DNA of 64,000 nt from a virus. Its lineage: Duplodnaviria; Heunggongvirae; Uroviricota; Caudoviricetes. A program made the translations under genes and the position numbers. Of this stretch, positions 688 through 51,838 are shown one piece after another. The notes under the pieces were generated by a model, which saw only the letters and a program-made list of their open reading frames with translations, searched no databases and was not told where the DNA came from. The first letter of the stretch is position 1. The number at the start of each line of letters is the position of its first letter. The stretch lies in the IMG/VR virus record IMGVR_UViG_3300022660_000042; one strand, written 5' to 3'.

Positions 688-1881
688 CTACACATCGTCT
701 TCGTCTTCAGCGAGAATATCACCATCGAGTTCATCGAGGTTGGCACCAGTACGGTTAACCATAGCGATACCAGTGTTTTCACTGAGGTCTTCATAACCTG
801 CATTCATAAGAGCGAGAACGTCTTCGTTTGCGTTGATAAGTACCTGTTCTTCGAATGCGAACTTGGATTCTACATAGTGTCTGAATGTTTCATCCTTATA
901 GAGAGGAATCCAGAATTTAGCACAATAGAGTTCTTCTTCCTTCCACATTCTTTCCGGCTTACCAAGTTCACCAGTTTCCGGGTCAACCTTGGCGTCGTAA
1001 CCGACACGAGCATAATATCCAGGCTTCGGCTTGTAAACTACGCCACATTCCATGGCTTCGTCCAAAAGACCGTAGTAAGGAGATACACCACCTGCATGGA
1101 GAATAAGATACTTGGTTTTGACGAATTCCTTAGCGGAACGACCCTTAGCGACAGCACAGGTAACAACCTTACCAAGAACATTCTTGCCCTTGTCACGTTC
1201 CTTCTTAGAAGAGTAACCGAGAACAATACCGTCAGCGTTGAATATGATACGCATACCACCAGGAATCTTATACGGGTCGCCGAACATTTCAAGAGAAGCA
1301 TAGACGTGGTTCATAACGAGAGTTGTAAATCCACCGCTCAAAATAATGTTTGCGAGCTCGTTCTTGAACTTTGCGGAAGACATGTTAACAGCGGAACTTC
1401 CCTGTTGTGCCTTTTCAAGAACCTGGTCTTCAATAATCGGACCCCAGGAGTCAAACAATACGAAAGTATTGCGACGTTGCTGAAGCGATCCGCATTGAGC
1501 CGAAAGCTTTGCAATAAATTGTTTAATCTTCGGAATACTGTTTGTAGGACCGTGGACACCGACTTCATCCATGTTAATTCCGAGCTTCGTAAGAAGGTCA
1601 TAGTTAACGGAGTTTTCAGTATCGACAATGAAGCAGTCCATACCAGAATCCTGTGCAGCCTTAAGAACAGAATAACCAATCATAGATTTACCCCAGCCGG
1701 AACCGGCCGCAATCATACTAATTGAACCCTTCTTAATACCGCCCTTGATTTTACCAGAAAGAACCAGATTAACCGAAATACAGTTCGTACTGAGCCATTC
1801 CACCGGAATTCGCTCGGTATGGAGAAGATCGGCCAAATCCTTATCCTTCTTCATTTTTGCAAGAAGCATGTTTTTTGCCAT
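688..1881 (-). CDS. uvsX: UvsX/RecA-family recombinase
   Basis: 397 aa. Strong collinear similarity to T4 UvsX (from memory): IPVEWLSTNCISVNLVLSGKIKGG..., P-loop GSGWGKS, and C-terminal GLLDEAMECGVVYKPKPGYYAR versus T4 GLLDMALELGFVVKPKNGWYAR. Confidence 0.9.
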   Translation of the reverse strand: MAKNMLLAKMKKDKDLADLLHTERIPVEWLSTNCISVNLVLSGKIKGGIKKGSISMIAAGSGWGKSMIGYSVLKAAQDSGMDCFIVDTENSVNYDLLTKLGINMDEVGVHGPTNSIPKIKQFIAKLSAQCGSLQQRRNTFVLFDSWGPIIEDQVLEKAQQGSSAVNMSSAKFKNELANIILSGGFTTLVMNHVYASLEMFGDPYKIPGGMRIIFNADGIVLGYSSKKERDKGKNVLGKVVTCAVAKGRSAKEFVKTKYLILHAGGVSPYYGLLDEAMECGVVYKPKPGYYARVGYDAKVDPETGELGKPERMWKEEELYCAKFWIPLYKDETFRHYVESKFAFEEQVLINANEDVLALMNAGYEDLSENTGIAMVNRTGANLDELDGDILAEDEDDV

Positions 1882-1996
1882 GTTTTACCTATTATTTTAT
1901 TTTGTCATCGAATTTGTCATCATTGAGCTTTAATTGACTAACGCACTTCTGAATCGCCCTTTTCATTGTACTTTTACTGTTAGTCAGAATATTTAT

Positions 1997-2028: not shown

Positions 2029-2049
2029 ATTTTAATTTTTATTCCGATT

Positions 2050-2415
2050 TTATCGACCGAGGAACTCATTGAGAACTTCACCTTCCGACGGATATAAATC
2101 GCGGTACGGATTGTGATATTCATTCTTTTGTTTTACAAATTCGTTCTTCTCAGCCTTTTCGACAACGAAATCCTTATCTACCTTGACAGCCGGAGTTTCA
2201 AGAATTTCCTTGGATTCCTTAATCTGTTTCGGTTGAATCAAAGCTTCAGCAGCCTTAGGCTTTGATGATTCGTTAATCTGCGGATTCGGAGTTTCAGAAG
2301 AGTGAGCAGCTTCATATTCCTTAAGCTTGGTCTTATGCTTTGTCCACATATGAGAACCGAGCTTCATACGGTTTTCAAAAGTCTCACCGCAAATAGGGCA
2401 AATTACTTGATCCAT
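2050..2415 (-). CDS. C2H2 zinc-finger-like small protein
   Basis: N-terminus ICPICGETFENRMKLGSHMWTKHK matches a CxxC...HxxxxH (C2H2-type) pattern. Confidence 0.5.
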   Translation of the reverse strand: MDQVICPICGETFENRMKLGSHMWTKHKTKLKEYEAAHSSETPNPQINESSKPKAAEALIQPKQIKESKEILETPAVKVDKDFVVEKAEKNEFVKQKNEYHNPYRDLYPSEGEVLNEFLGR

Positions 2416-2427
2416 AGTCTACTCCAA

Positions 2428-3066
2428 TTATTTCTTTTTAGAATTCTTCTTTGCAGGCTTCTTCTTGTTCTTCTTTCCGTTAACAGCCTCATTTTGGCGG
2501 GGCTTAGTTTTCTTCGGAGTGCTCTTGCTTGGCTTGACAGTTTTCTCAGTCGTCTTCTTGGTGTCATTTGTCTTTTCCTTACGTGAACGTTTCTTGTCAG
2601 TAGACTTCTTGTCGGCGGACTTCTTAGCCGGCTTGAGAGCCTTTGCGATATTCTTCAAGTCTTCGTCAGAAATCTTTTCAATTTCTTCCTTAGTTACTTC
2701 GGTAACTTCATTTTCACCGGTAACGACAGCGACTTTCGGAGTATCTTCAACCTTATCAAGAACCTTACCGGCGAGCTCTTCAGTCATTGTGTAAGTCGGA
2801 TCCAATTCTACCATCGGCTCAGGCTTATTTGCTTCTTCGCAAATAATATTTCCAGCTTCCATGATGTCGCATGCAGTCTGCTTGCATTCTTCTTCATGCT
2901 TTACAGGATCTTCGCCTTCAGTTTCGACAAAAGCATCGAGCGGATTTTCATCGAACTTTGCAAGTTCCGGTTCCTGTTCGCGCAATGCCTTACGGAGCAA
3001 GAAATATCCAGTTACTACCAAGATTACGGCAAGCGCAATCAAACCAATTATCAATGTTGTATTCAT
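2428..3066 (-). CDS. membrane-anchored protein with lysine-rich, histone H1-like basic C-terminal tail
   Basis: N-terminal hydrophobic helix (LIIGLIALAVILVVTGYFLL), acidic middle, and a C-terminal ~60 aa dominated by K/R/T/S. Confidence 0.5.
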   Translation of the reverse strand: MNTTLIIGLIALAVILVVTGYFLLRKALREQEPELAKFDENPLDAFVETEGEDPVKHEEECKQTACDIMEAGNIICEEANKPEPMVELDPTYTMTEELAGKVLDKVEDTPKVAVVTGENEVTEVTKEEIEKISDEDLKNIAKALKPAKKSADKKSTDKKRSRKEKTNDTKKTTEKTVKPSKSTPKKTKPRQNEAVNGKKNKKKPAKKNSKKK

Positions 3067-3115
3067 ATTTTCACCTCATTAAAATAATAACTTGTGTATT
3101 GTATATATAAAAATT

Positions 3116-4192
3116 TTAACTGAAAAACTCGAACATCGTCGGGCGTTCCAAATTAATTTCTTCCTTTGGACCTAACCAACCGGCAATTCTGAACATCGTA
3201 TCAAAAAGCTGACAGAACGATTTTCTGAACGCGGTTTCATAGTCAATCTCAAAGTATTTATTAAATTCTTTCGGCCAAGATTCAAGATATGCAACCGCTT
3301 CAATCGGTTCTATCTTTCCGTCCATATCCTTAGCTGAAATCTTTTGAGAAGGCTTTACATATACATAACGCAATTTTGAGTTATTACGAATCGGATTATA
3401 TTTCAACCTGTCCTTTGTGATAATATAGTTGTAGATAATGGAAATCTTTGCACCGAAAATAAGACCTGTCGGAAGAATCAAACCATGGTCCATATAATAG
3501 TCCATAAGAGTTTCGTATTTCGTGTCGAACGGCTGTGTATTCATCGAACTTTCCATATATTGTTCTCTGAATTTATCCATTGCGATTGTAGTATATTTCG
3601 TATAGTTCTTGATACCAATAACAGACGAAATAACATTCAAATCTGAGCTCTTAAACTGGTCATAAACCTTGTAGATATATTCCTGTGCTTCTTCCTTACC
3701 GATACCGTCACAAATTTTGAACGCGAGTTCTTCGGCTGCAACCTTACAGAAGTCAGGCATTATAGATTTCTTAATAGGAATACCCATGATTTTGTGTTTC
3801 ATGTGGTCCAACGGAAACTTCTTACCTTCACTGTCGATAATATTACCGATATACAACTTCTTCGCAAAACAGAACATGTTTTTGAAGATATTTTCACGGT
3901 TAAAATTAATCTTATTGACTGTATGGAATTGTGTGGCTCGAATTTCAAGAATCCTATCAAAAAAGCGCTGGAATATGTTTTCGCATTTCTCAAAATATCT
4001 ACGATATTCATCTTCATTCGTAATCGATAAACCAGATTCTAATAAACGACGCTTAAGTTCGATAATCGAGAAATAAACGGAGTCCGTGTCATTATGTACG
4101 GCACAGACATCACGTCCTTTCACAACAAGCGGACTCATGTTGTTCATTTGAAATTTATCAATCTTTACATCTAATGCTTTCTTAAATTCCAT
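3116..4192 (-). CDS. family-B DNA polymerase, C-terminal subunit (palm motif C / thumb)
   Basis: Contains the HNDTDSVYF motif C (YGDTDS-type). Real start ATG at 4192..4190 (MEFKKALDV...) with GAGGA Shine-Dalgarno 6 nt upstream. The junction with the upstream gene is TAA-A-ATG. Confidence 0.8.
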   Translation of the reverse strand: MEFKKALDVKIDKFQMNNMSPLVVKGRDVCAVHNDTDSVYFSIIELKRRLLESGLSITNEDEYRRYFEKCENIFQRFFDRILEIRATQFHTVNKINFNRENIFKNMFCFAKKLYIGNIIDSEGKKFPLDHMKHKIMGIPIKKSIMPDFCKVAAEELAFKICDGIGKEEAQEYIYKVYDQFKSSDLNVISSVIGIKNYTKYTTIAMDKFREQYMESSMNTQPFDTKYETLMDYYMDHGLILPTGLIFGAKISIIYNYIITKDRLKYNPIRNNSKLRYVYVKPSQKISAKDMDGKIEPIEAVAYLESWPKEFNKYFEIDYETAFRKSFCQLFDTMFRIAGWLGPKEEINLERPTMFEFFS

Positions 4193-4193
4193 T

Positions 4194-6401
4194 TTAATCC
4201 TCAATACCGAGAAGGTCAGTGTCCTTGTTGAATTCATAAGCATAGATTTCCATTTCGTCATTACCGCGAAGAACGGTAATCTTTTCATAGAAATCATACT
4301 TATATGTCTTTTCTTCTGTAATAATGGAAACTGTCGAGAATTCCTTAATTACATCCTTGAGCAAGTACGGAGAAACATAGTATTCGTTAAGATGCTTAGT
4401 CAACCAGTCTCTCAAGGTAACACGAGCACAACGACAAATTGCACGGGCAACATCCGGGTCATACAATGCGAAGCTGTTTGCAAGAGATACACCGTAAACC
4501 GAGTTAATAATCAACTTCTTGGTCATTTGTCGGTTATGATAAAGATGTGCACCAGCCTTGTCACCATTCTTTTCACATTCCTTTTCCTTATTCTTATATA
4601 TCTTACGTTCTGCAAACACCTGCTTAACAACGTTCGGAAGAATACCATCGTCACGGTTATAGAACCCAAGTTCTGCAACATCCGTCGGAATAACCTCACC
4701 GGATTCAATCTGTTCCTTAGTAGGATGAACAACCTTCAATTCTGGAGAGATATGGAATTCCATAATATGGTGCGGATATGAAGACGTAATATCGAAAGAC
4801 ATACAGTCGTCATGTCGGCCAGGGAAGTCATAACAATAACCGGCTTTTACCTGGAATTCTGGGAATGGATGAGGATCCTTCTTATAAGCATTCCATGCTT
4901 CTATGAAAGCATCTTCAGTTTTCCAATGTTCAAATCGTTTCTGACCAACTATTGACCTAATCGTGGCATAATCGGCTTTTCCTACTTTCTGAGCTTCCTT
5001 ATAGGCATCATAGAAAATCCTGAACTTACAATAATCCTTGTAACGTTTTGCACCAGGTTCCCATTCAGTGTTCTCGAAGTAATCGTTTCCATCCTTATCC
5101 TTGATAATATAGCAACGTTCGTTTCTCCACCAGTCAACATGATGGTCTTCGCGGTCATTAAGCACACGGTTTGTCTTGTGCAAGAACTTCAAGATATAAC
5201 CGGTAGTCGTCGGAACTTTCTGTTCAACCTTATCGAGAGTTACAAGGCAATCGAACGCATATTCAATAATAAGGTCGAAAAGCTTATTCTTTGTTTCCAA
5301 GTCGACCATAATCATAACGTCCTTTCGGTTATACTTCAGGAAGTTATTACCGTCAATCTTGTAGGTTTCAGAAATCGCACCGCTATACTCCAATTTCTGG
5401 TCATTCAATTCGAGGTTGGCCACATAGTTAAGAGAATACGAAGAAAGAGGCGGATGAGATCCGAAGACTTCGTACAGTTTCATGTAGTCAAGCGAATACA
5501 AACCAGGAATGGTATATTTAGTTCCGAGTTCGACATTTTCCATCTTGCGGTCAGTAATCTTTTCCGCAATAGGCATCATGCCAAGAGGAGACAACTGCTT
5601 TTCCCATTCTACCTTTATATCCAGTTTTTCTCTAAGGACTTCACAACGACGCATGATATACGGAATATCGTATGCAAGCGAATTCCAACCTGTAATGATG
5701 TCAAAATGGTTATTGGCGAACCACTTTATCCATTCTCGGATAAGTACCGCTTCTGACTTACAATACGTATAGTTAGGCAAATCCTTAGGGTCATCCGTAT
5801 ATCTGATTGTACTCCAGGTATAAGATTGCTTTGTCTTTGTAGAATAACAAGTAATTGCGTTAATCGGCCATTGTGCTATTTCAGGAGACGGGAAATCATA
5901 GGAAACGAAACAGCTGTCTTCGTACGGAAGATATTTATCAACTTCAATATCATAAACGAAATACTTATCATGGTCAAACTTCATGTCGAAATCAATAAGA
6001 CTAACATCGATAGTCTTATTGGTTTTCTTCTCACAAACTTTAATCAACGTTTCGTCATAATACTTACTGCCAGACGCAACTTCAATATCGAAGAAACAAA
6101 TGTTCCACAAACTCATGTCTACATGGAGTTCTTCGTTATCGTACAGCTGATGCATGTATTTGACTTCAGGACGCAAATTACCTTCACAGACGCCTTTCAG
6201 ACCTATTAACGAATTTCGGTCCTTATAAGGGAACCTTTCCATTGGAGTCTTATGAATATCGGTAAGCTTGCTCTTTTTTGTCTTATCAGGAATGTAGCAC
6301 CAGTTATTGAATTCTACTTCCTTAAATTCAGTATCTTCTTGGGCCTTAAAGTATAACTTTTGTTTCTTAAAGTCCCAATAACAATTTTTAAATCCACTCA
6401 T
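4194..6401 (-). CDS. family-B DNA polymerase, N-terminal subunit (3'-5' exonuclease plus palm motifs A and B)
   Basis: 735 aa; Exo I FFDIEVASGS; motif A SFDITSSYPHHIM (DxxSLYPS-type); motif B KKLIINSVYGVSLANS (KxxxNSxYG). Ends with TAA at 4196..4194. Confidence 0.85.
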   Translation of the reverse strand: MSGFKNCYWDFKKQKLYFKAQEDTEFKEVEFNNWCYIPDKTKKSKLTDIHKTPMERFPYKDRNSLIGLKGVCEGNLRPEVKYMHQLYDNEELHVDMSLWNICFFDIEVASGSKYYDETLIKVCEKKTNKTIDVSLIDFDMKFDHDKYFVYDIEVDKYLPYEDSCFVSYDFPSPEIAQWPINAITCYSTKTKQSYTWSTIRYTDDPKDLPNYTYCKSEAVLIREWIKWFANNHFDIITGWNSLAYDIPYIMRRCEVLREKLDIKVEWEKQLSPLGMMPIAEKITDRKMENVELGTKYTIPGLYSLDYMKLYEVFGSHPPLSSYSLNYVANLELNDQKLEYSGAISETYKIDGNNFLKYNRKDVMIMVDLETKNKLFDLIIEYAFDCLVTLDKVEQKVPTTTGYILKFLHKTNRVLNDREDHHVDWWRNERCYIIKDKDGNDYFENTEWEPGAKRYKDYCKFRIFYDAYKEAQKVGKADYATIRSIVGQKRFEHWKTEDAFIEAWNAYKKDPHPFPEFQVKAGYCYDFPGRHDDCMSFDITSSYPHHIMEFHISPELKVVHPTKEQIESGEVIPTDVAELGFYNRDDGILPNVVKQVFAERKIYKNKEKECEKNGDKAGAHLYHNRQMTKKLIINSVYGVSLANSFALYDPDVARAICRCARVTLRDWLTKHLNEYYVSPYLLKDVIKEFSTVSIITEEKTYKYDFYEKITVLRGNDEMEIYAYEFNKDTDLLGIED

Positions 6402-8238: not shown

Positions 8239-8982
8239 TTAAACCAACTTCGTCTTTACCTTATCAATTAATCCGATTTTCTTTGCTTCATTTGCCGACA
8301 TAAAGTTGTCAAACGAAGTAAGTTCACGGAGTTCTTCAGTAGTCTTCCCAGTCTGTTTCTTGAATACACGATTCATGCTATCAGTCCAGTTCTGCAATTC
8401 CTTCTGGAGAATGCTAACGTCCTTAAGACGACCAGCAAAACCATCGGCGACAATACCAGCCTGATGAATCATGATACGAGAAGACGGGAATGCATAACGA
8501 TGGCCAGGAGTTCCGTTTGCAAGAATGACAGAAGCCATACTAGAGCAAGAACCGCAAGCAATCGTGTTAATAATAATACCTTTACGCTTCAATTCATCCA
8601 TAACGTCGATGAGAGCAAAACCAGCATCGCAATCTCCACCAGGAGAAGAGAGGTAAATGGTAACGGGATCCTTAATGTCGTCATCGTAAAACGAAAGACG
8701 TTGAATAGTGCGAATGGCGATATTCCAATCAATCGCACCAGTAATCCAAATACAACGCTTGACTTCAAAGTAATTCTGACGCATTACTTCAAAATAACCG
8801 CCCATTTCACCAAGAGGAATGGCTTGTTGTTCAGGTTCTTCAGGCTGACCTTCCGGAGGAACATCACCAGGATTTTCCGGTACAGGAGGCATTTGACCCG
8901 GATTCGGAGTAACCATAGGAGCAATAGGTGCTTCTACAGGCTTATTTTCAGTTTTCTTCTTTACGATGCGCTTTAAAGACAT
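8239..8982 (-). CDS. ClpP-family serine peptidase (S14) with Pro-rich N-terminal extension
   Basis: Core IYLSSPGGDCDAGFALIDVM...GSCSSMASVILANG...RIMIHQAG matches the ClpP Ser/His/Asp regions. Confidence 0.8.
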   Translation of the reverse strand: MSLKRIVKKKTENKPVEAPIAPMVTPNPGQMPPVPENPGDVPPEGQPEEPEQQAIPLGEMGGYFEVMRQNYFEVKRCIWITGAIDWNIAIRTIQRLSFYDDDIKDPVTIYLSSPGGDCDAGFALIDVMDELKRKGIIINTIACGSCSSMASVILANGTPGHRYAFPSSRIMIHQAGIVADGFAGRLKDVSILQKELQNWTDSMNRVFKKQTGKTTEELRELTSFDNFMSANEAKKIGLIDKVKTKLV

Positions 8983-9729: not shown

Positions 9730-10173
9730 TTACTCGACGATTTCAAGTTCTTCGGGGTCTGTCATAGGTTCTGGACCATTTGACGGCTGAGTATTCTCGA
9801 GATACTTACCAGCATAGAGCACGGCAGTTTCGCCTTGAATAGTATCAACCATGTCTTTAATTCCAGCCATGAAAGCGGACTCATCAGATTCTTCAGTTTT
9901 TTCTATTTTTTCTTCGACATTGATATTCATCTTGTCATAGGCTTCGAACACAGCCTTATTAATCTTGTCCGCAAGCGGCTTCTTAATAGGCTGGACGAAA
10001 CAAAGCTCACGCTTGTTATTCACGTTCTTAGGGTAAATAACATAACGCTTGCCATAATAGTCCATCAATGTAAGGCCAGTAAGTAAGAGTTCGTGGTCAA
10101 GAATAACCTGACACTTGCCGAGCTTACCGTACTTCACATTATATGGATAAATTTTGACTTTTGTTACTTCCAT
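9730..10173 (-). CDS. spoVG: SpoVG-family nucleic-acid-binding regulator homolog
   Basis: MEVTKVKIYPYNV...GKCQVILDHELLLTGLTLMD...RELCFVQPI...KINKAVFEAY parallels SpoVG (MEVTDVRLRRV...ASITLDHEFVVHDIRVI...RDIAHPI...IQDAVLNEY, from memory). Start moved to the internal MEVTKV. Confidence 0.65.
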   Translation of the reverse strand: MEVTKVKIYPYNVKYGKLGKCQVILDHELLLTGLTLMDYYGKRYVIYPKNVNNKRELCFVQPIKKPLADKINKAVFEAYDKMNINVEEKIEKTEESDESAFMAGIKDMVDTIQGETAVLYAGKYLENTQPSNGPEPMTDPEELEIVE

Positions 10174-10174
10174 A

Positions 10175-10630
10175 TTATGGTAGATCCTTTCTGTACTCTT
10201 CAAGAGCTTCAATATCCTTGGAAACCTTCATCAGGTCAATTTCCTTAGCCACAGCTATGGAAATAATATCATTGAAGATACTCTGTACAGCCGGAACCGG
10301 TTCAACATCTGCAACCTTAATCATACGTTCTACAACTTCTGCAGGAGGAACCGGATGTTCATTAGTTACATTACCACTTCCGTCAACGAAATTCTTGAGG
10401 AAGTCATTGAGATAGAAAATCGCCTTACCGAGGTCCTGATACGGCGTAGCATGTTCAGGGTCAGTCTTGGTCTTATCGAGGTAACGCATGGAATATTTCC
10501 ATACATTTGCGCAGTCACAATCAAGATAGCGAGTAATCGTAATAGTTTCAATACCAGATGCGTTATTGCAATAATGACTAGGATGATTAACGGCCTGGTC
10601 AATTTTCTTAAGCTGTTCTTCAGTATGCAT
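10175..10630 (-). CDS. phage protein with N-terminal HPSHY motif (DUF3310-like)
   Basis: VNHPSHYCN motif near the N-terminus, typical of a widespread phage family of unknown function. Confidence 0.45.
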   Translation of the reverse strand: MHTEEQLKKIDQAVNHPSHYCNNASGIETITITRYLDCDCANVWKYSMRYLDKTKTDPEHATPYQDLGKAIFYLNDFLKNFVDGSGNVTNEHPVPPAEVVERMIKVADVEPVPAVQSIFNDIISIAVAKEIDLMKVSKDIEALEEYRKDLP

Positions 10631-45738: not shown

Positions 45739-46890
45739 TTAGGCTACATTGTCTCGTTTTACGAAAATGGTAAATCCAAGGAAACCAATAAAATAGAGAA
45801 GTGCCAAAACAAGATATAAAGTATTGTCAGTAAACAAGTTTCCAAGAATAGGTCCCGCAATTCCAGCAAATCCCCAGGCACTAAGCGTCATAGAGTGAAC
45901 TGTAGAAAGACAACTATCTCCGAATCTCTTAGCAAGTAAACTTGGCAAACAACTGAATCCTCCGCCGTAGTTCCATTCAATCATCAAAATACCAGCTACA
46001 AGCAAAATCGGATTTTGTGTATAACACAAAAACGCACCAAGAATACCCAAACTTGCAACCCAATGATAAGCAGCCTTTCTACCAATCGAATCACTAGCCG
46101 TACTCATTCCAAATCGACCACCGACATTTGCAACAGCTGTAGCAGCCATAAGTGAAGCGATAGCAGTATATCCAGCATTTAAAAACAGGCTCTTTTCCTG
46201 AGAAATAAGTGCAAGGCCGCATGTAATGTTGATAAAGAACATAAACCAAATCGAAATATATTCTTTAGTCAAAAATTTGGCCTTTATAAGAGTCTTATAC
46301 GGAATAGCAGTATATTTTGTAGAAATATATGCAGGATTAGGTTTATATAGCCATGAAGAGAAACTCATTACAACTAAGAAAATCAATCCCATGAGTAAGA
46401 ATACAACTGGCAACGTAAAGGTTGCAAGCAAATACTCAATCATAGGAGCCGCAACGAACTTTCCCAATCCGAAACCGGTAATAGCCAATCCGGAAGCGAG
46501 TCCTTTATGATTACTGAAGTTTGCAAGCAGCTGTTTAATTGGTGCCGTATAGCCTATGCCGGTACCGCAACCCATAAATGAACAGCCGATATAATAAAGT
46601 GGTAAAAATCCAGTATAGGTTGCAAACGAAAGTAGCAATAATCCTATTGCAAACAGAATTGTTGAAACTATCGCCATTCGTTTCGGGAACATTTCAACGA
46701 ATCTTCCGAAAACCGCAGCACCCATGCCAAGGAAGAAAATAATCAGAGTAAATCCAATATCAGCTGAGAATTTCGAAATATCAAAAGTCTCCATGATATT
46801 CTTGGCATATTGTGAATAGTTATAAACTGAACCTAAACTGACAGGTAACAAAATACCCGGAATTAAAATATTGAGAAATCTATTTGTCAT
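45739..46890 (-). CDS. MFS-family transporter (oxalate/formate antiporter-like)
   Basis: 383 aa with ~11-12 hydrophobic helices spaced throughout, as in major facilitator superfamily transporters. Confidence 0.7.
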   Translation of the reverse strand: MTNRFLNILIPGILLPVSLGSVYNYSQYAKNIMETFDISKFSADIGFTLIIFFLGMGAAVFGRFVEMFPKRMAIVSTILFAIGLLLLSFATYTGFLPLYYIGCSFMGCGTGIGYTAPIKQLLANFSNHKGLASGLAITGFGLGKFVAAPMIEYLLATFTLPVVFLLMGLIFLVVMSFSSWLYKPNPAYISTKYTAIPYKTLIKAKFLTKEYISIWFMFFINITCGLALISQEKSLFLNAGYTAIASLMAATAVANVGGRFGMSTASDSIGRKAAYHWVASLGILGAFLCYTQNPILLVAGILMIEWNYGGGFSCLPSLLAKRFGDSCLSTVHSMTLSAWGFAGIAGPILGNLFTDNTLYLVLALLYFIGFLGFTIFVKRDNVA

Positions 46891-46891
46891 A

Positions 46892-47266
46892 TTAATTGAA
46901 TGCCGTAGTAATAGGGTCTTTGAATACTTCCTTGAATTCGTGTTTGAGTTTCATATTGAAATGCCAATATGGGTCGAATAATGGATCCGTATTTTCAATC
47001 AATCCGATAGTATCAGATTCTTCCTTTGGAATGTCCCATGAAATATCAAATATTCCATTATCAAGAACATTTAAAGTAAACTTTATATTCGGACAAGTAC
47101 CATCCCGGTCAAATATATGACCGAAAATACCAGCAATATCTTCAGTAATGAAATTGCTAGGTGGTTTGATAAGTAATTTGTATACGCCTGTTCTGAATTT
47201 TATATTATTATCATCTATCTTGTCACGCCAAGTAGATGAATATGTTGAATCATATGTCATTTTCAC
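46892..47266 (-). CDS. hypothetical protein
   Basis: 124-aa ORF. Confidence 0.45.
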   Translation of the reverse strand: MKMTYDSTYSSTWRDKIDDNNIKFRTGVYKLLIKPPSNFITEDIAGIFGHIFDRDGTCPNIKFTLNVLDNGIFDISWDIPKEESDTIGLIENTDPLFDPYWHFNMKLKHEFKEVFKDPITTAFN

Positions 47267-48042
47267 CTCGTCTTATAACCAAAGGGCAACATTTCGTCCT
47301 TTATAAATTCTTTATATTTATACAGTCCGATTTCTTCAATTACCCAATTTTCATCGACGGGTTTAGTAAAGTCAAAAACAGGAATACAGTCATATTTCGT
47401 ATGCTGATTAAACTTATAGAGGTAGTTTAAGAACATAGCAATATCAGTATTGCAATAATCTATAAAATTTTTGCACTCATCTACCGTAGCAAATCCGATA
47501 TACTGATTTTTGAGTTTTAAGGCACTTTCGGGGACGTTTTGAACTGGAGTATATCTTTCCTTGGACAAAAGCGTACACCAGTCCCAGGCTCGTCTATGGC
47601 CTCTTATATCGCTTAATTGGATATACCAGGTATTCTTCTTTCCCTGTTCGGTTCCAATAGTCTTTTTTCCAACCAGATATGCATCTACAATCTTCGTAAT
47701 TTCCTTATATTTCTCAGGATCCGAAAATCTGTTAAATCGTAAATCATAGAGGTCAAGTTTCTTTTGGTCAAACTTGAAAATACCTACATCCGAGAAAAAT
47801 TCAGCATCTTCAAACTTTGCATCACCGACAACGGTTTCAATACGGCTAAAAGACTCAAATCTTTCATTGAGAATTTCGATATGCTTATTGTTGATATTTT
47901 CCTTAATACGATGATTGTCTACAAAATCAGTAGGTACAAGCCAAACGGCGGAATCTGCGAATTTCTCACATTCCGACATTACTTTTAAATAAAGCTTTTC
48001 GCCTTTACCGATATATGGTGGATTTCCGATTATTGTAAACAT
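47263..48042 (-). CDS. N6-adenine DNA methyltransferase, C-terminal fragment (motif IV NPPY onward)
   Basis: Starts MFTIIGNPPYIGKG. FTIIGNPPY matches the gamma-class motif IV context (TaqI FDLILGNPPY, from memory). No SAM-binding motif I in this ORF. Confidence 0.7.
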   Translation of the reverse strand: MFTIIGNPPYIGKGEKLYLKVMSECEKFADSAVWLVPTDFVDNHRIKENINNKHIEILNERFESFSRIETVVGDAKFEDAEFFSDVGIFKFDQKKLDLYDLRFNRFSDPEKYKEITKIVDAYLVGKKTIGTEQGKKNTWYIQLSDIRGHRRAWDWCTLLSKERYTPVQNVPESALKLKNQYIGFATVDECKNFIDYCNTDIAMFLNYLYKFNQHTKYDCIPVFDFTKPVDENWVIEEIGLYKYKEFIKDEMLPFGYKTR

Positions 48043-48431
48043 AGAAGGTCACGTTCAGCTTGTAGATTAGAAATAACTTTTAAAAAATCTCCGTCGTTAT
48101 TTATTGTAATGGTCCAATCCTTACCGCTAACTACGTCGCCGTGCAAAAATTTGACATCACAAGAACTCGGTTGAATACTGAAAACTTTATCATCATATTT
48201 TTCTTGACTTTCATAGATGGCTTTAAATTTCTTTGAACAAAAACCAACACCAGAATATAAATTCGGGGCTTTAAATAAACCATAACAACATGGCAATCTT
48301 CCAAGGTTACTACTATAGTCCTGGCTTGAGAAATAACAGACTCTATCTATTAAATCGGAAGTAACAGAATGTTTAATTGTCTTATCATTTCGAACAATCG
48401 AGAATTTAATCTTTTTCTTAAACCAAAGCAA
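48030..48431 (-). CDS. small protein, tandem paralog A (C-terminal GDxVxGKDWTIxINxDGDFxKVIxNLxxE motif)
   Basis: 133 aa; C-terminal ...HGDVVSGKDWTITINNDGDFLKVISNLQAERDL is shared with the next two ORFs. Confidence 0.5.
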   Translation of the reverse strand: MLWFKKKIKFSIVRNDKTIKHSVTSDLIDRVCYFSSQDYSSNLGRLPCCYGLFKAPNLYSGVGFCSKKFKAIYESQEKYDDKVFSIQPSSCDVKFLHGDVVSGKDWTITINNDGDFLKVISNLQAERDLLCLQ

Positions 48432-48813
48432 TTTCAGTCTCCAGGTTATAAATCAATTTTTCAAAACTAAATTGAGAATCTAATGTAATCGTCCAGTCAT
48501 GGCATTTAACAGTATCGCCAAGCTTGAAACTCGCGCCACAATCATCAAGATTCTTATAGCTAGAGCCAAACATTACATCCTGATATTCTTCCGGGTACAA
48601 TACCATGTATTTTGTAAATTCTTGATTATCATTAGTAAAACTTAATCGGGTATCGTCTTTTCGAGAAGAATTACAAAGGTAATATTTTCGTGTTTTACCG
48701 TTATGAACAATCTTTACTCTTAAAGTATTAGAACTATGTCTTCTACTGCAATACATATTCCATTTCCAAGTTGTTGAAGAGACGTTTAAAATCACCAGTA
48801 GTATTAAGTTCAA
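48418..48813 (-). CDS. small protein, tandem paralog B
   Basis: C-terminal ...LGDTVKCHDWTITLDSQFSFEKLIYNLETEIAL. The real start is probably the internal MYCSRR. Confidence 0.5.
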   Translation of the reverse strand: MNLILLVILNVSSTTWKWNMYCSRRHSSNTLRVKIVHNGKTRKYYLCNSSRKDDTRLSFTNDNQEFTKYMVLYPEEYQDVMFGSSYKNLDDCGASFKLGDTVKCHDWTITLDSQFSFEKLIYNLETEIALV

Positions 48814-49201
48814 TAGTCCAGGTAGGAAATACTACCTTATCGCCACGTTTGAGAATATATGTTGCATCACATGGATATACATGAGAACCATAATGTACAC
48901 GTGTTTCAACTTCATCATGTTCAGACATATATCTTACACCAAATCCATAAATTTCTTCAGGTGTTGGATTATGCAGCTGACCCATCGAAAGAATATCATA
49001 ATATTGCGACATACTATCAAAACGTTGTGTCAAATCCGGCTTATATTTATCGCTGCTATAAATTGTAGTCTTAAACCAAGGCGCATATTCGAGACGACTT
49101 GAACGACCATTTCGAAAAACAGTAAATAAAACCGGTTTTTCATGTTTCACCGATTCTTTGGTTTCAGGCTCATCATAGATATGTTTATAATCTGTCAACA
49201 T
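48743..49201 (-). CDS. small protein, tandem paralog C
   Basis: C-terminal ...RGDKVVFPTWTIELNTTGDFKRLFNNLEMEYVL. Confidence 0.5.
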   Translation of the reverse strand: MLTDYKHIYDEPETKESVKHEKPVLFTVFRNGRSSRLEYAPWFKTTIYSSDKYKPDLTQRFDSMSQYYDILSMGQLHNPTPEEIYGFGVRYMSEHDEVETRVHYGSHVYPCDATYILKRGDKVVFPTWTIELNTTGDFKRLFNNLEMEYVLQ

Positions 49202-49647
49202 ACAAATTCCGCAAATCCGCTATTTTCAATTTTTGTTTCATCGACTTCTTCTTTAGGTTTCCAGTTTTCAAAATCCCACTTAAAGAAATCGGCACATACA
49301 ATATTTTTGTTTACAATTTTACTGTATTTAGGTCCAACAATTTCAAGAATTCTTTGGACACACAAATCTCTGTTATCCTGCATTAATTCAACACCGTAAA
49401 GTGTCTTTACTGCATCTTCAACCGAAATTCCAGAAGCAAGACGTTTTTCAAGCATACGAACAAGGATGTTTCCGCTTCCCGCTGTAGGATCCAAAAATGT
49501 GGCTTTAGGGTCTTTCCATTTTTCTTCAGGAATTTTAGTAATCATTTGGTCAATAACTGCAAATGGTGTAAATACTTCACCGTTCTTGGTGATACGTTCT
49601 TTAGAACGTTGAATTCCATCATTAGTAGTAAATAACTCTTTAGACAT
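49195..49647 (-). CDS. N6-adenine DNA methyltransferase, N-terminal fragment (motifs X, I, II, III)
   Basis: EVFTPFAV (FTP motif), FLDPTAGSGN (motif I FxGxG), YGVEL (motif II) and VCADFFKW (motif III, compare TaqI ADFLLW). The ORF then stops before any NPPY. Confidence 0.7.
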   Translation of the reverse strand: MSKELFTTNDGIQRSKERITKNGEVFTPFAVIDQMITKIPEEKWKDPKATFLDPTAGSGNILVRMLEKRLASGISVEDAVKTLYGVELMQDNRDLCVQRILEIVGPKYSKIVNKNIVCADFFKWDFENWKPKEEVDETKIENSGFAEFVC

Positions 49648-49684: not shown

Positions 49685-50467
49685 CTATCGTGATGCATAG
49701 CTTTCAGACCAGTCTTCTTTTTCGATAGCATGCATTTTTGCATATGAATCTTTACTGTCACCTTCAAATTTAGCCAAATCACTTAGTAAATCACAGTTAT
49801 GCATAATTGCTTTTGCGGTACATTCCTTAAATCTTCTAACATCATCACTGTTTTTAATTGAAAGTATGGCATTCAAGTTATAGAAAAAACAATCCATATC
49901 TTCTTTATCTGAATTTACTCTAATAGTCTGACATGTATGATAAAAACCTTTTGTTTTTCCAATAGAATATATACAATTTTTTATAATGTTTGCTCTGGCA
50001 GAATTTTTATTTACAAACATTTTTCCAAGTTCATAAGTATCAAAACTATATTCTAGTTCATAAAATCTATATTCATATCTATATGTTTTAGGGTCATTTT
50101 TCAAATGATATTTTCCAACTCTTTTATTATATCTTGCACGTATATTTAAAATAACATCATTATCCGAATGTTTTATATTGAAAATGATGGTAGAATATGG
50201 TATAATATCTGTAACTTCTTCAGGTTCAATTATAGAACCATTATATGTTACTGGTGCTTTATTAAATGCCGAAACATCATAACCGCATACTTCAATACCA
50301 TATTTTTCAAACAGTTTAATAATCTGAAAAATTTCACCTTTTCTAGCTGTTATTTCTTTCTTTGTCTGTTTGATTTTATCAATAACTTTATTATACTGCT
50401 TGATGGGTTTATCAAGAAGTTTGTTAATATCGTTTCCAATTTTAATATCTAAATCTTTCATAATCAA
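49685..50467 (-). CDS. hypothetical protein, array family X (copy 1)
   Basis: 260 aa. C-terminal ...ECTAKAIMHNCDLLSDLAKFE resembles X2 (...CKAAKQNLLMLKSINKLE) and X3 (...CYMARQDMETLKCIEKLD). Also shares a mid-protein GY-II and an RYY/RLY-x-S/T-x-R motif. Confidence 0.5.
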   Translation of the reverse strand: MIMKDLDIKIGNDINKLLDKPIKQYNKVIDKIKQTKKEITARKGEIFQIIKLFEKYGIEVCGYDVSAFNKAPVTYNGSIIEPEEVTDIIPYSTIIFNIKHSDNDVILNIRARYNKRVGKYHLKNDPKTYRYEYRFYELEYSFDTYELGKMFVNKNSARANIIKNCIYSIGKTKGFYHTCQTIRVNSDKEDMDCFFYNLNAILSIKNSDDVRRFKECTAKAIMHNCDLLSDLAKFEGDSKDSYAKMHAIEKEDWSESYASR

Positions 50468-50862
50468 CCAGGCAAAACATCAAATGTTTGTTCAACAGCA
50501 TGCATTTTTAAACGTAAATCGATTTTATAAAAATCAACCTCTCCATCATAGATAGCTTTCAAAAAGATTTTAAGATCTTCTCTTTCCATCTTATTAAACC
50601 AGAACATATGCATATCATCGTTCGGTTTATTTCCATTATGGATTGACATAGCGCTACTGTGAAGTTTTACGCACAACTGATGTCCTGGTAAATGATAATA
50701 AACCGAATGATAACCCTTTATAAATCCAAAAGTTTTCAAAAATGCATCCATAATATCACGTATATGGTCAGCAAACGCTGGAGCTTCATCCAGACATTGC
50801 ATAAAATACGCAAGTTTCATCTCTTTTGGCATATCTGCAAAATTTGAAAGTTTAAATTTCAT
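50464..50862 (-). CDS. hypothetical protein, array family Y (copy 1)
   Basis: 132 aa ending ...VLPG, the same length and C-terminal LPG as Y2. ATGA overlap with X1. Confidence 0.5.
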   Translation of the reverse strand: MKFKLSNFADMPKEMKLAYFMQCLDEAPAFADHIRDIMDAFLKTFGFIKGYHSVYYHLPGHQLCVKLHSSAMSIHNGNKPNDDMHMFWFNKMEREDLKIFLKAIYDGEVDFYKIDLRLKMHAVEQTFDVLPG

Positions 50863-51439: not shown

Positions 51440-51838
51440 TTACCCAGGTAATTTGTCGATTGCTTCTTTCACTTCGGCTTCTTTAATTGCTAAACAATAC
51501 TTTCTGTAATATTCTAAAAAGTCTTCTTTAGATTCGTCATCTACATAATGCATTATAACCGCTGGAAGAAGAGTCATTTCATCACTGCAAATTTTAAAAC
51601 TCTGCTCAAGATTTATTATCTCCAGCAATGTACAAAAATTATTAGTCTTTGCAGATTCAATAGCTGCATTTTCCGGCGCAGTTACAACAATATTTCCATC
51701 AATGTAAAATTTTACTAATTCTTTATAAAGATTACTAACTTCACATGTAATAACTTTGCATTTGGCAAAATTTAAACACGTGTATTTATTAGTACCAGGT
51801 GAAGAATGTAGTAACAGCATATTAATCCAGCTTTTCAA
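51440..51838 (-). CDS. hypothetical protein, array family Y (copy 2)
   Basis: 132 aa ending ...KLPG. Confidence 0.5.
   Translation of the reverse strand: MKSWINMLLLHSSPGTNKYTCLNFAKCKVITCEVSNLYKELVKFYIDGNIVVTAPENAAIESAKTNNFCTLLEIINLEQSFKICSDEMTLLPAVIMHYVDDESKEDFLEYYRKYCLAIKEAEVKEAIDKLPG

Follow-up and report, generated by a model that had tools for sequence, protein, structure and literature searches.

The γ-class N6-adenine DNA methyltransferases (Pfam PF02384 and Eco57I, PF07669), such as M.TaqI, EcoKI HsdM, M.BseCI and CamA, carry all of their motifs in a single chain, in the order X-I-II-III-IV...VIII followed by a target-recognition domain (TRD), and have in common the motifs FTP, FxGxG and NPPY. 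Natural two-polypeptide methyltransferases are found among the C5-cytosine enzymes, these being M.AquI and M.EcoHK31I, and fragment complementation is established for the C5 enzymes M.HhaI, M.BspRI and M.SssI (PMC3404938). The available part of a survey of jumbo phages mentions permuted DNA adenine methyltransferases (DAMs) and a split Pol III alpha, and no split DAM; it also notes, for the same phage group, enzymes split into separately encoded parts (PMC7824862). A search of the literature, with REBASE outside its scope, found no account of a natively split N6-adenine phage methyltransferase. The locus analysed here lies in a stretch of 64,000 nucleotides (the window; IMG/VR record IMGVR_UViG_3300022660_000042) from an uncultured large T4-like gut phage. 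It consists of two genes that each resemble one part of a γ-class enzyme, here called the N-half and the C-half, with three small paralogous genes (P1, P2 and P3) between them.

The reading that we prefer, with a probability of roughly 0.72, is that these genes form a translationally coupled five-gene operon for an N6-adenine DNA methyltransferase that is natively made as two polypeptides. Each half is kept, under purifying selection, as a gene of its own, and across many large phages the order, spacing and number of the halves vary; single-chain homologs exist with the motifs in either order. The window shares the motif-order logic of the γ-class enzymes, with motifs X, I, II and III followed by motif IV. 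It differs from them in that the motifs are divided between two genes with three others in between, in that the N-half adds a conserved tail, and in that no known TRD matches the C-half in the sequence of its C-terminal domain.

The five open reading frames (ORFs) are co-oriented, and at each of their four junctions they overlap by 7-14 nucleotides (nt). Stop codons are present at every junction. The stop of the N-half overlaps the start of P1 in the sequence ATGTTGA, and the end of P3 and the start of the C-half share 13 nt. Short overlaps between adjacent genes are the usual signature of translational coupling. No terminator-like site was seen on the minus strand inside the operon, the scans for promoters and terminators being at the level obtained with shuffled sequence. 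A preliminary description of this DNA had listed five ORFs here, and all of them were confirmed on the minus strand, with the coordinates it gave; the motifs that it assigned to the N-terminal fragment, the start that it gave for the C-terminal fragment, and the filling of the gap by three tightly overlapping ORFs are likewise as described. Its distance of 1.55 kb between the motifs is wrong: motif III (ADFFKW) is about 1.25 kb from NPPY, and the stop of the N-half is 1.15 kb from the start of the C-half. The middle small ORF had been placed at 48418..48813. The gene is there, but its start is most likely not the TTG at 48813 but the ATG at 48756, from which it begins MYCSRR. This start is backed by the gene call in the related locus L004 (112 residues) and by the homologs P0030-P0033, which start MYCS(R/K).

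The N-half contains motifs X (FTP), I (FLDPTAGSGN), II (YGVEL) and III (VCADFFKW). It passes the Pfam cut-off for N6_Mtase (PF02384), with 28.2 bits against 20.4 (E 1.5e-6) over profile positions 23-96 of 311. It also matches phrog_21201 and phrog_4376, which are both short stand-alone families, and positions 283-383 of phrog_11371. A protein search returned 218 matches, and the figures given here rest on the best 120 of the 218. These stand-alone N-halves are 145-153 amino acids (aa) long, with a few truncated exceptions, and are 55-99% identical; among the matches listed, homologs lie on contigs of up to 359 kb. Stand-alone N-halves of 132-148 aa are found in the Lak megaphages and in the cyanophages P-SSM2, S-CAM7 and S-SKS1. 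The tail past motif III hardly varies among the aligned sequences (WDFENW, with G-x-x-EF at the extreme end), and we therefore take it to be a selected feature rather than read-through junk. The ratio of non-synonymous to synonymous substitution rates (dN/dS) was computed for both halves against three or four orthologs, and is 0.08-0.33 for the N-half and 0.04-0.19 for the C-half. Relatives of the phage carry a second type of N-half near clamp-loader genes; the matching neighbourhood lies outside the 64-kb window.

The C-half begins MFTIIGNPPY, in which IIGNPPY forms residues 4-10. Two codons ahead of its ATG the frame is closed by a stop, so that no N-terminal extension is possible. It matches positions 7-246 of 383 in phrog_11371, and its C-terminal domain has the conserved motifs IRGH and F-T-x-x-E-x-x-NF-x-Y-x-x-TD. 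The search for relatives found 22 close ones (72-88% identity), the full-length members being 261-266 aa long, and all of the full-length relatives inspected start M-x-F-x-I-(I/V)-G-N-P-P-Y. A sequence search of the PDB with the C-half profile gave only weak matches to METTL5, in the NPPF region.

One fused relative, P0023, is a single chain of 382 aa with the motifs in γ order, in which NDFF and GNPPY are separated by 14 aa (NDFFVFANEINMKFDVIIGNPPY); a spacing of about 14 aa between motifs III and IV is what had been expected for intact enzymes. It matches Pfam Eco57I and N6_Mtase, and its identity is 36% with the N-half and 31-33% with the C-half; the C-half aligns over 99% of its length to residues 115-382, at 31% identity. 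The comparison of folds with solved γ enzymes was made on this fused relative only. The AlphaFold model of P0023 (mean predicted local distance difference test, pLDDT, 69.5) has the canonical seven-stranded methyltransferase fold, with strands β1 to β3 at residues 42-102 and β4 to β7 at 117-198. Its best Foldseek matches are CamA, M.BseCI, EcoKI HsdM and M.TaqI (E ~1e-7). Given these strand positions, the break in the window falls exactly in the β3/β4 loop. The preliminary description had placed the break at the motif III/IV loop and the enzyme in the γ class, and the model agrees with it on both counts, its fold being like that of TaqI, EcoKI-M and CamA.

The other fused form is found in Aeromonas T4-like phages (ZPAH1, where it is annotated as 'adenine-specific DNA methylase', CC2, Aeh1 and others; phrog_11371). 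This chain is homologous to both of the window halves. It differs in being one polypeptide with NPPY at the N-terminus and motifs X and I-III at the C-terminus (FTP / FLDPACGDGN / LYGFDI / HKDFLKV), a β-like order; it ends at HKDFLKV without the tail of the N-half, and it is not accompanied by P genes. The NPPY of the C-half aligns with that of P0023, of the ZPAH1 chain and of gene 036 of P-SSM2. One family has fused members in both motif orders.

Gene layouts were obtained by mapping 60 fetched loci with hidden Markov models (HMMs). The layout N-P-P-P-C of the window is also that of L021, L014, L004 and L057. In L009, N-P and P-C are separated by ten unrelated small ORFs (3.4 kb). Other close relatives have the C-half preceded by three P genes with no N-half within 6 kb (L007), by two with no local N-half (L017-L020), or by one with no N-half within 10 kb upstream (L015/L016). 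The spacing from N-half to C-half in close relatives is 1.15 kb, 4.2 kb or 61 kb, the last of these being found on the contigs of L015/L016 (415,750 and 230,319 bp), where an N-half that is 61% identical to that of the window lies upstream of the C-half on the same strand. Both of the large contigs with a window-type C-half thus also hold an N-half. On the 415-kb contig the C-half is 87% identical to that of the window and the N-half only 61%, and its fetched loci contain at least three C-type halves against one N-half. It follows from these layouts that the invariant link is that of P directly upstream of C, and that the link of N to C is not invariant.

In distant large phages the usual order is reversed, one or more NPPY-first halves being followed by an N-half, often with an overlap of 16-37 nt. 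The order C then N is found at 16 distinct distant loci, including P-SSM2, where gene 036 (MKFTLAIGNPPY...) shares 20 nt with gene 037, the bearer of motifs X and I-III; S-CAM7 and S-SKS1 likewise have a C-half and an N-half side by side. The order C-C-N is found in L022, L037 and L041. The tandem C-halves of the C-C-N loci have both ends conserved (68-100% identity) and the middle diverged (25-50%), as would be expected of copies that retain a shared interface and diversify in a recognition region. Distant relatives mostly keep the C-half and N-half adjacent or overlapping, and in many large phages, from 99% down to about 35% identity, the halves are kept as separate genes. The split versions of cyanophages and Lak-like phages (P-SSM2 036/037, Lak-A2 and many IMG/VR contigs) resemble the window in consisting of two polypeptides, with a C-half that starts at NPPY and an aromatic-rich tail on the N-half. 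They differ in the C-then-N order, usually with an overlap of about 20 nt, in sometimes having two C-halves per N-half, and in having no P. These genes are annotated only as hypothetical proteins, and in PHROGs the parts are spread over different families, most of them labelled 'unknown function'.

A few loci have more elaborate forms. In L041 the first C copy is the C-terminus of a protein of 1358 aa that also holds an N-half-like segment. In L046 and L051 there is an ORF of about 400 aa with an N-half-like segment and an NPPY that is not matched by the C-half profile, followed by an extra stand-alone N-half. Prevotella phage Lak-A2 (L003) has, beside a stand-alone N-half, three ORFs that match only the C-terminal domain of the C-half and lack NPPY, one of them being divergently oriented; these may be recognition-domain copies or remnants.

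In the proposed enzyme, the N-half would supply the AdoMet (S-adenosylmethionine)-binding part of the Rossmann-like sheet, that is β1 to β3 with motifs X and I-III, and the C-half would supply β4 to β7 with the catalytic NPPY loop, together with the C-terminal putative TRD. The halves would join non-covalently across the β3/β4 seam, rebuilding the AdoMet site beside the NPPY loop, and the conserved tail of the N-half may help in docking. The assembled enzyme would methylate adenines of the phage DNA against host restriction. One N-half may serve more than one C-half, as suggested by the C-C-N loci and by the excess of C-type halves on the 415-kb contig. P may work together with the C-half or upon it, affecting assembly, specificity or regulation, though we hold this with low confidence. 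The split C5 enzymes are similar in that one catalytic domain is made as two separately translated polypeptides that have to associate, as the halves of the window are presumed to do. They differ in their C5 chemistry, in having the break within or after the variable region and not between motifs III and IV, in being parts of bacterial restriction-modification systems and not phage orphan enzymes, and in having no variable stoichiometry.

The small genes P1-P3 are paralogs, as had been proposed. When the 164 minus-strand ORFs of the window with at least 50 aa were all compared with one another by blastp, the three matched each other at E values from 3e-6 to 7e-5, with 31-35% identity in the last 65 aa, and their alignment has the common C-terminal motif GDxVxxxxWTIxLxxxxxFxxLxxNLExE. 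They had also been said to contain no recognisable nuclease or homing-endonuclease motif, and scans of Pfam, PHROGs, PADLOC and NCBIfam bear this out, with no match to any of the three. A word-indexed search of 5.8 billion clustered proteins gave 12 matches to the P family, and HMMER, run exhaustively on 1.84 billion representatives, gave 17. In both searches nearly all of the matches are small ORFans of the same lineage, and the few large proteins among them look like spurious repeat matches. The 19 P members that were mapped belong to nine distinct lineages, and have in common a mid-protein (Y)G(I/V)G motif and a C-terminal strand-strand-helix motif. The AlphaFold model of P3 (pLDDT 57.5) is confident only for an N-terminal hairpin and for the C-terminal 40 or so residues, which form a unit of strands and a long helix, and a Foldseek search of viral structures with this model gave nothing at E < 0.2. 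Comparison of the P profile by hhalign with the N-half, the C-half and the long N-terminal extensions of C-halves gave a probability of 0.1%, and P has no similarity to HsdS or to any TRD.

Orthologs of P1 are 88-93% identical, and dN/dS against L004 is 0.16 for P1, 0.13 for P2 and 0.075 for P3. In L014, P1 is only 55% identical to that of the window, against 98% for N and 93% for C. The copy number of 1-3 between loci, together with this divergence, implies a fast turnover, yet with purifying selection on each copy. The ten extra ORFs of L009 were considered as diverged P members and rejected, being below significance in three successively broader HMMs, although some of them resemble P by eye (NL-x-T-E-x-AL tails). 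P is a lineage-restricted, fast-diversifying family. The preliminary description had offered, as one of its explanations, a two-piece methyltransferase with a set of accessory subunits, and this is the only one that survives; the two-piece part stands, whereas the accessory role of P comes from linkage only and is put forward with low confidence.

It is close to an even question whether P has any function in methylation. The P genes could be unrelated, fast-evolving early or accessory genes (for example, for anti-defence) that only share the operon. This would fit their limitation to one phage lineage, the lack of P in the distant split relatives, the ten unrelated small ORFs within the same interval of L009, and a neighbourhood full of other tandem paralog sets. 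It fits less well with the position of the P gene, which is directly upstream of the C-half, almost always overlapping it, in all nine of the distinct lineages examined, despite turnover elsewhere. Where there is a local N-half, the next gene after it is likewise a P gene, and the purifying selection on P is strong. At the other extreme, P might be an adaptor or a specificity or assembly factor in a combinatorial system, in which one AdoMet-binding subunit would be shared in trans by several catalytic/recognition halves; we regard this fuller version of the two-subunit enzyme as doubtful.

A number of points weigh against a two-subunit enzyme as such. That the halves assemble is inferred. The C-half alone has no significant match in Pfam. 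No similarity of P to either half or to a known family was detected, and the adjacency of P to the C-half across nine lineages could be plain synteny. The fetched flanks of the N-half loci L011, L012, L035, L036, L038, L049 and L054 contain no local C-half, so that the N-half might act alone or with a remote partner. These loci would be explained if the halves did not belong to one enzyme, the N-half being an autonomous AdoMet-binding protein (a cofactor sponge, a regulator, or a partner of other C-halves) and the P-C module a separate unit, for example in DNA binding or anti-defence. The P-C modules with no local N-half (L007, L015-20) would also be explained, as would the unequal identities of the two halves on the 415-kb contig, which speak against co-evolution as a fixed pair. 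We nevertheless consider this unlikely. Neither half is a complete methyltransferase fold, and an intact NPPY would be pointless without an AdoMet site. Moreover, the 230-kb and 415-kb contigs with a window-type C-half carry an N-half as well, and most of the distant relatives keep the two halves side by side.

The preliminary description had suggested that an intact γ-class gene was split between motifs III and IV by a mobile or homing cassette, formed by the P genes. The order N...C does mimic a γ enzyme cut at the III/IV loop, a fused relative in γ order exists (P0023), the copy number of P varies, and L014 shows mosaic turnover of the cassette. Against this, the halves are separate genes in related phages and across hugely divergent ones, in the latter usually in the opposite order, and the fused relatives are only 31-36% identical to the window halves. 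A conserved two-gene arrangement in other phages is what the preliminary description had itself named as grounds for giving up the idea of an insertion. An uninterrupted methyltransferase gene was looked for in related phages, and there is none in the close relatives; no insert-free allele was found among the 22 C-half relatives, the N-half relatives (best 120 of 218) or the 60 fetched loci. The N-half has its conserved extra tail, the C-half has its native start just behind a stop codon, and P stays with the C-half even without a nearby N-half (L007, L015-L020). Nothing in the P genes matches a nuclease or homing-endonuclease motif. Rfam gave no intron match down to E = 1, the only sub-threshold match being to PhrS on the wrong strand, and no direct or inverted repeats flank the P genes beyond short chance matches. 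Insertion of a cassette is thus very improbable, and the particular cases of a homing-endonuclease, intron or intein insertion are ruled out, there being no nuclease or intein motif, no splicing RNA, no continuous frame and no insert-free allele.

Genuine free-standing genes of the homing-endonuclease type (PF24308 DUF7487 = phrog_3339/phrog_559 HNH) do occur beside the cluster in L004 and L057, where they border N on its upstream side and C on its downstream side. The corresponding sites of the window lack them, and like the free-standing homing-endonuclease genes of T4-like phages they lie between genes, here adjoining the cluster, and occur in some close relatives but not in others. The mobile genes of the neighbourhood are therefore recognisable and lie outside the cluster. 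P is unlike them in having no nuclease signature, in being under purifying selection and in being tied to the C-half and not to a target site. Their polymorphism, present in some relatives and absent in others, is a functional hint for DUF7487. A Type I-like arrangement of M and S subunits was also considered and is ruled out, since the cut runs through the catalytic domain (β3/β4) and P is unlike HsdS or a TRD. Least probable of all is that the two ORFs are non-functional remnants of a decaying, pseudogenised anti-restriction methyltransferase, as had also been suggested: phage accessory regions accumulate fragments and the C-half lacks a Pfam match of its own, but decay is excluded by the dN/dS of 0.04-0.33 over all five genes, and the lengths are constant in the N-half (best 120 of 218) and in the 22 C-half homologs, with the catalytic NPPY and FxGxG intact.

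If the halves assemble as proposed, this would be the first family of N6-adenine DNA methyltransferases described, within the literature searched, as having a native split in its catalytic domain, and it would offer naturally optimised split-methyltransferase parts for targeted-methylation tools. A widespread modular split family, with fused and split forms in both orders, should come as a moderate surprise to specialists in methyltransferases, and it lends itself to direct tests. Large phages of gut and sea commonly carry the family, its genes being labelled 'hypothetical', and it could account for many of the 'truncated methylase' ORFs in phage genomes. Split intermediates have long been postulated for the circular permutation of methyltransferases, and the phage genes would be natural examples of them. 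Were the combinatorial system real, living genomes would show every intermediate of fission and refusion (fused γ, split in either order, and fused β). The presence of several NPPY/TRD halves per AdoMet half would then be a cheap way to diversify, swap or multiply anti-restriction specificities. The P family, as a conserved and unexplained companion of the C-half, is worth testing.

The coordinates of the genes discussed here and below are collected in Table 1.

Table 1. Positions of the five genes of the locus and of other features in the window and in related loci (aa, amino acids; empty cells, no entry).
Feature	Sequence	Coordinates	Strand	Size	Remarks
N-half ORF	window	49195..49647	minus	150 aa	predicted AdoMet-binding half, motifs X, I-III
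P1 (pA)	window	48743..49201	minus	152 aa	first of three paralogs
P2 (pB)	window	48418..48756	minus	112 aa	second paralog; probable ATG start; mechanical ORF to TTG 48813
P3 (pC)	window	48030..48431	minus	133 aa	third paralog; TTG start
C-half ORF	window	47263..48042	minus	259 aa	predicted catalytic and target-recognition half; begins at strand β4/motif IV
Homing-endonuclease-like genes	L004	3480-4406, 6856-7992, 9258-10304			
Homing-endonuclease-like genes	L057	3082-4008, 6806-7918			
C-C-N	L022	1335-3620			
C-C-N	L037	8128-10432			
C-C-N	L041	5162-10435			
ORF of about 400 aa, then N-half	L046	6951-10417			
ORF of about 400 aa, then N-half	L051	8767-10441			
N-half and C-terminal-domain ORFs	L003 (Lak-A2)	1506-1970 (+), 2030-2431 (-), 2951-3598 (-), 4001-4447 (+)			
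DNA polymerase, N-terminal ORF	window	4194-6401	minus	735 aa	family B
DNA polymerase, C-terminal ORF	window	3116-4192	minus		family B
ClpP-family protease gene	window	8239-8982	minus		Pfam 2.6e-40
SpoVG-like gene	window	9730-10212	minus		slightly under Pfam cut-off
Transporter gene	window	45739-46890	minus	383 aa	major facilitator superfamily
Tandem paralogs	window	49685-50467/50864-51436/51822-52415	minus		blastp
Tandem paralogs	window	43828-44643/44644-45366	minus		blastp
Tandem paralogs	window	11022-11351/11366-11695	minus		blastp
Similar pair	window	50464-50862 (-), 51440-51838 (-)			similar by eye
IS605 OrfB/TnpB gene	L004	12202-12786	minus		Cas12f-like
IS605 OrfB/TnpB gene	L012	15165-16358	plus		Cas12f-like

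The genes of the window are nearly all on the minus strand, and include those for a T4-type family-B DNA polymerase (in two ORFs), UvsX, an RnlA-like RNA ligase and ClpP. Close relatives are found on metagenomic contigs of 229-415 kb, the sample source for one group of them being pig gut, and there is no near-identical DNA match to the window among GenBank phages. The two polymerase ORFs meet in the sequence TAAAATG, with the stop codon TAA at 4194 and then ATG at 4192, and resemble the split polymerase genes 43A/43B of some T4-like phages. The ClpP-family and SpoVG-like genes both lie in the region of the replication genes.

The region around the methyltransferase locus is rich in duplicated small genes. 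Three tandem sets of paralogs were identified by blastp (E = 1e-4 to 1e-22), and a further pair is similar by eye, without a blastp score. Two genes downstream of the C-half is a gene for a multi-pass membrane protein, assigned to the major facilitator superfamily from the match of its L004 ortholog to PF07690 and from phrog_2034; transporter genes are unusual in phages. Genes of the IS605 OrfB/TnpB type (Cas12f-like) are present near the syntenic region of related large-phage contigs.

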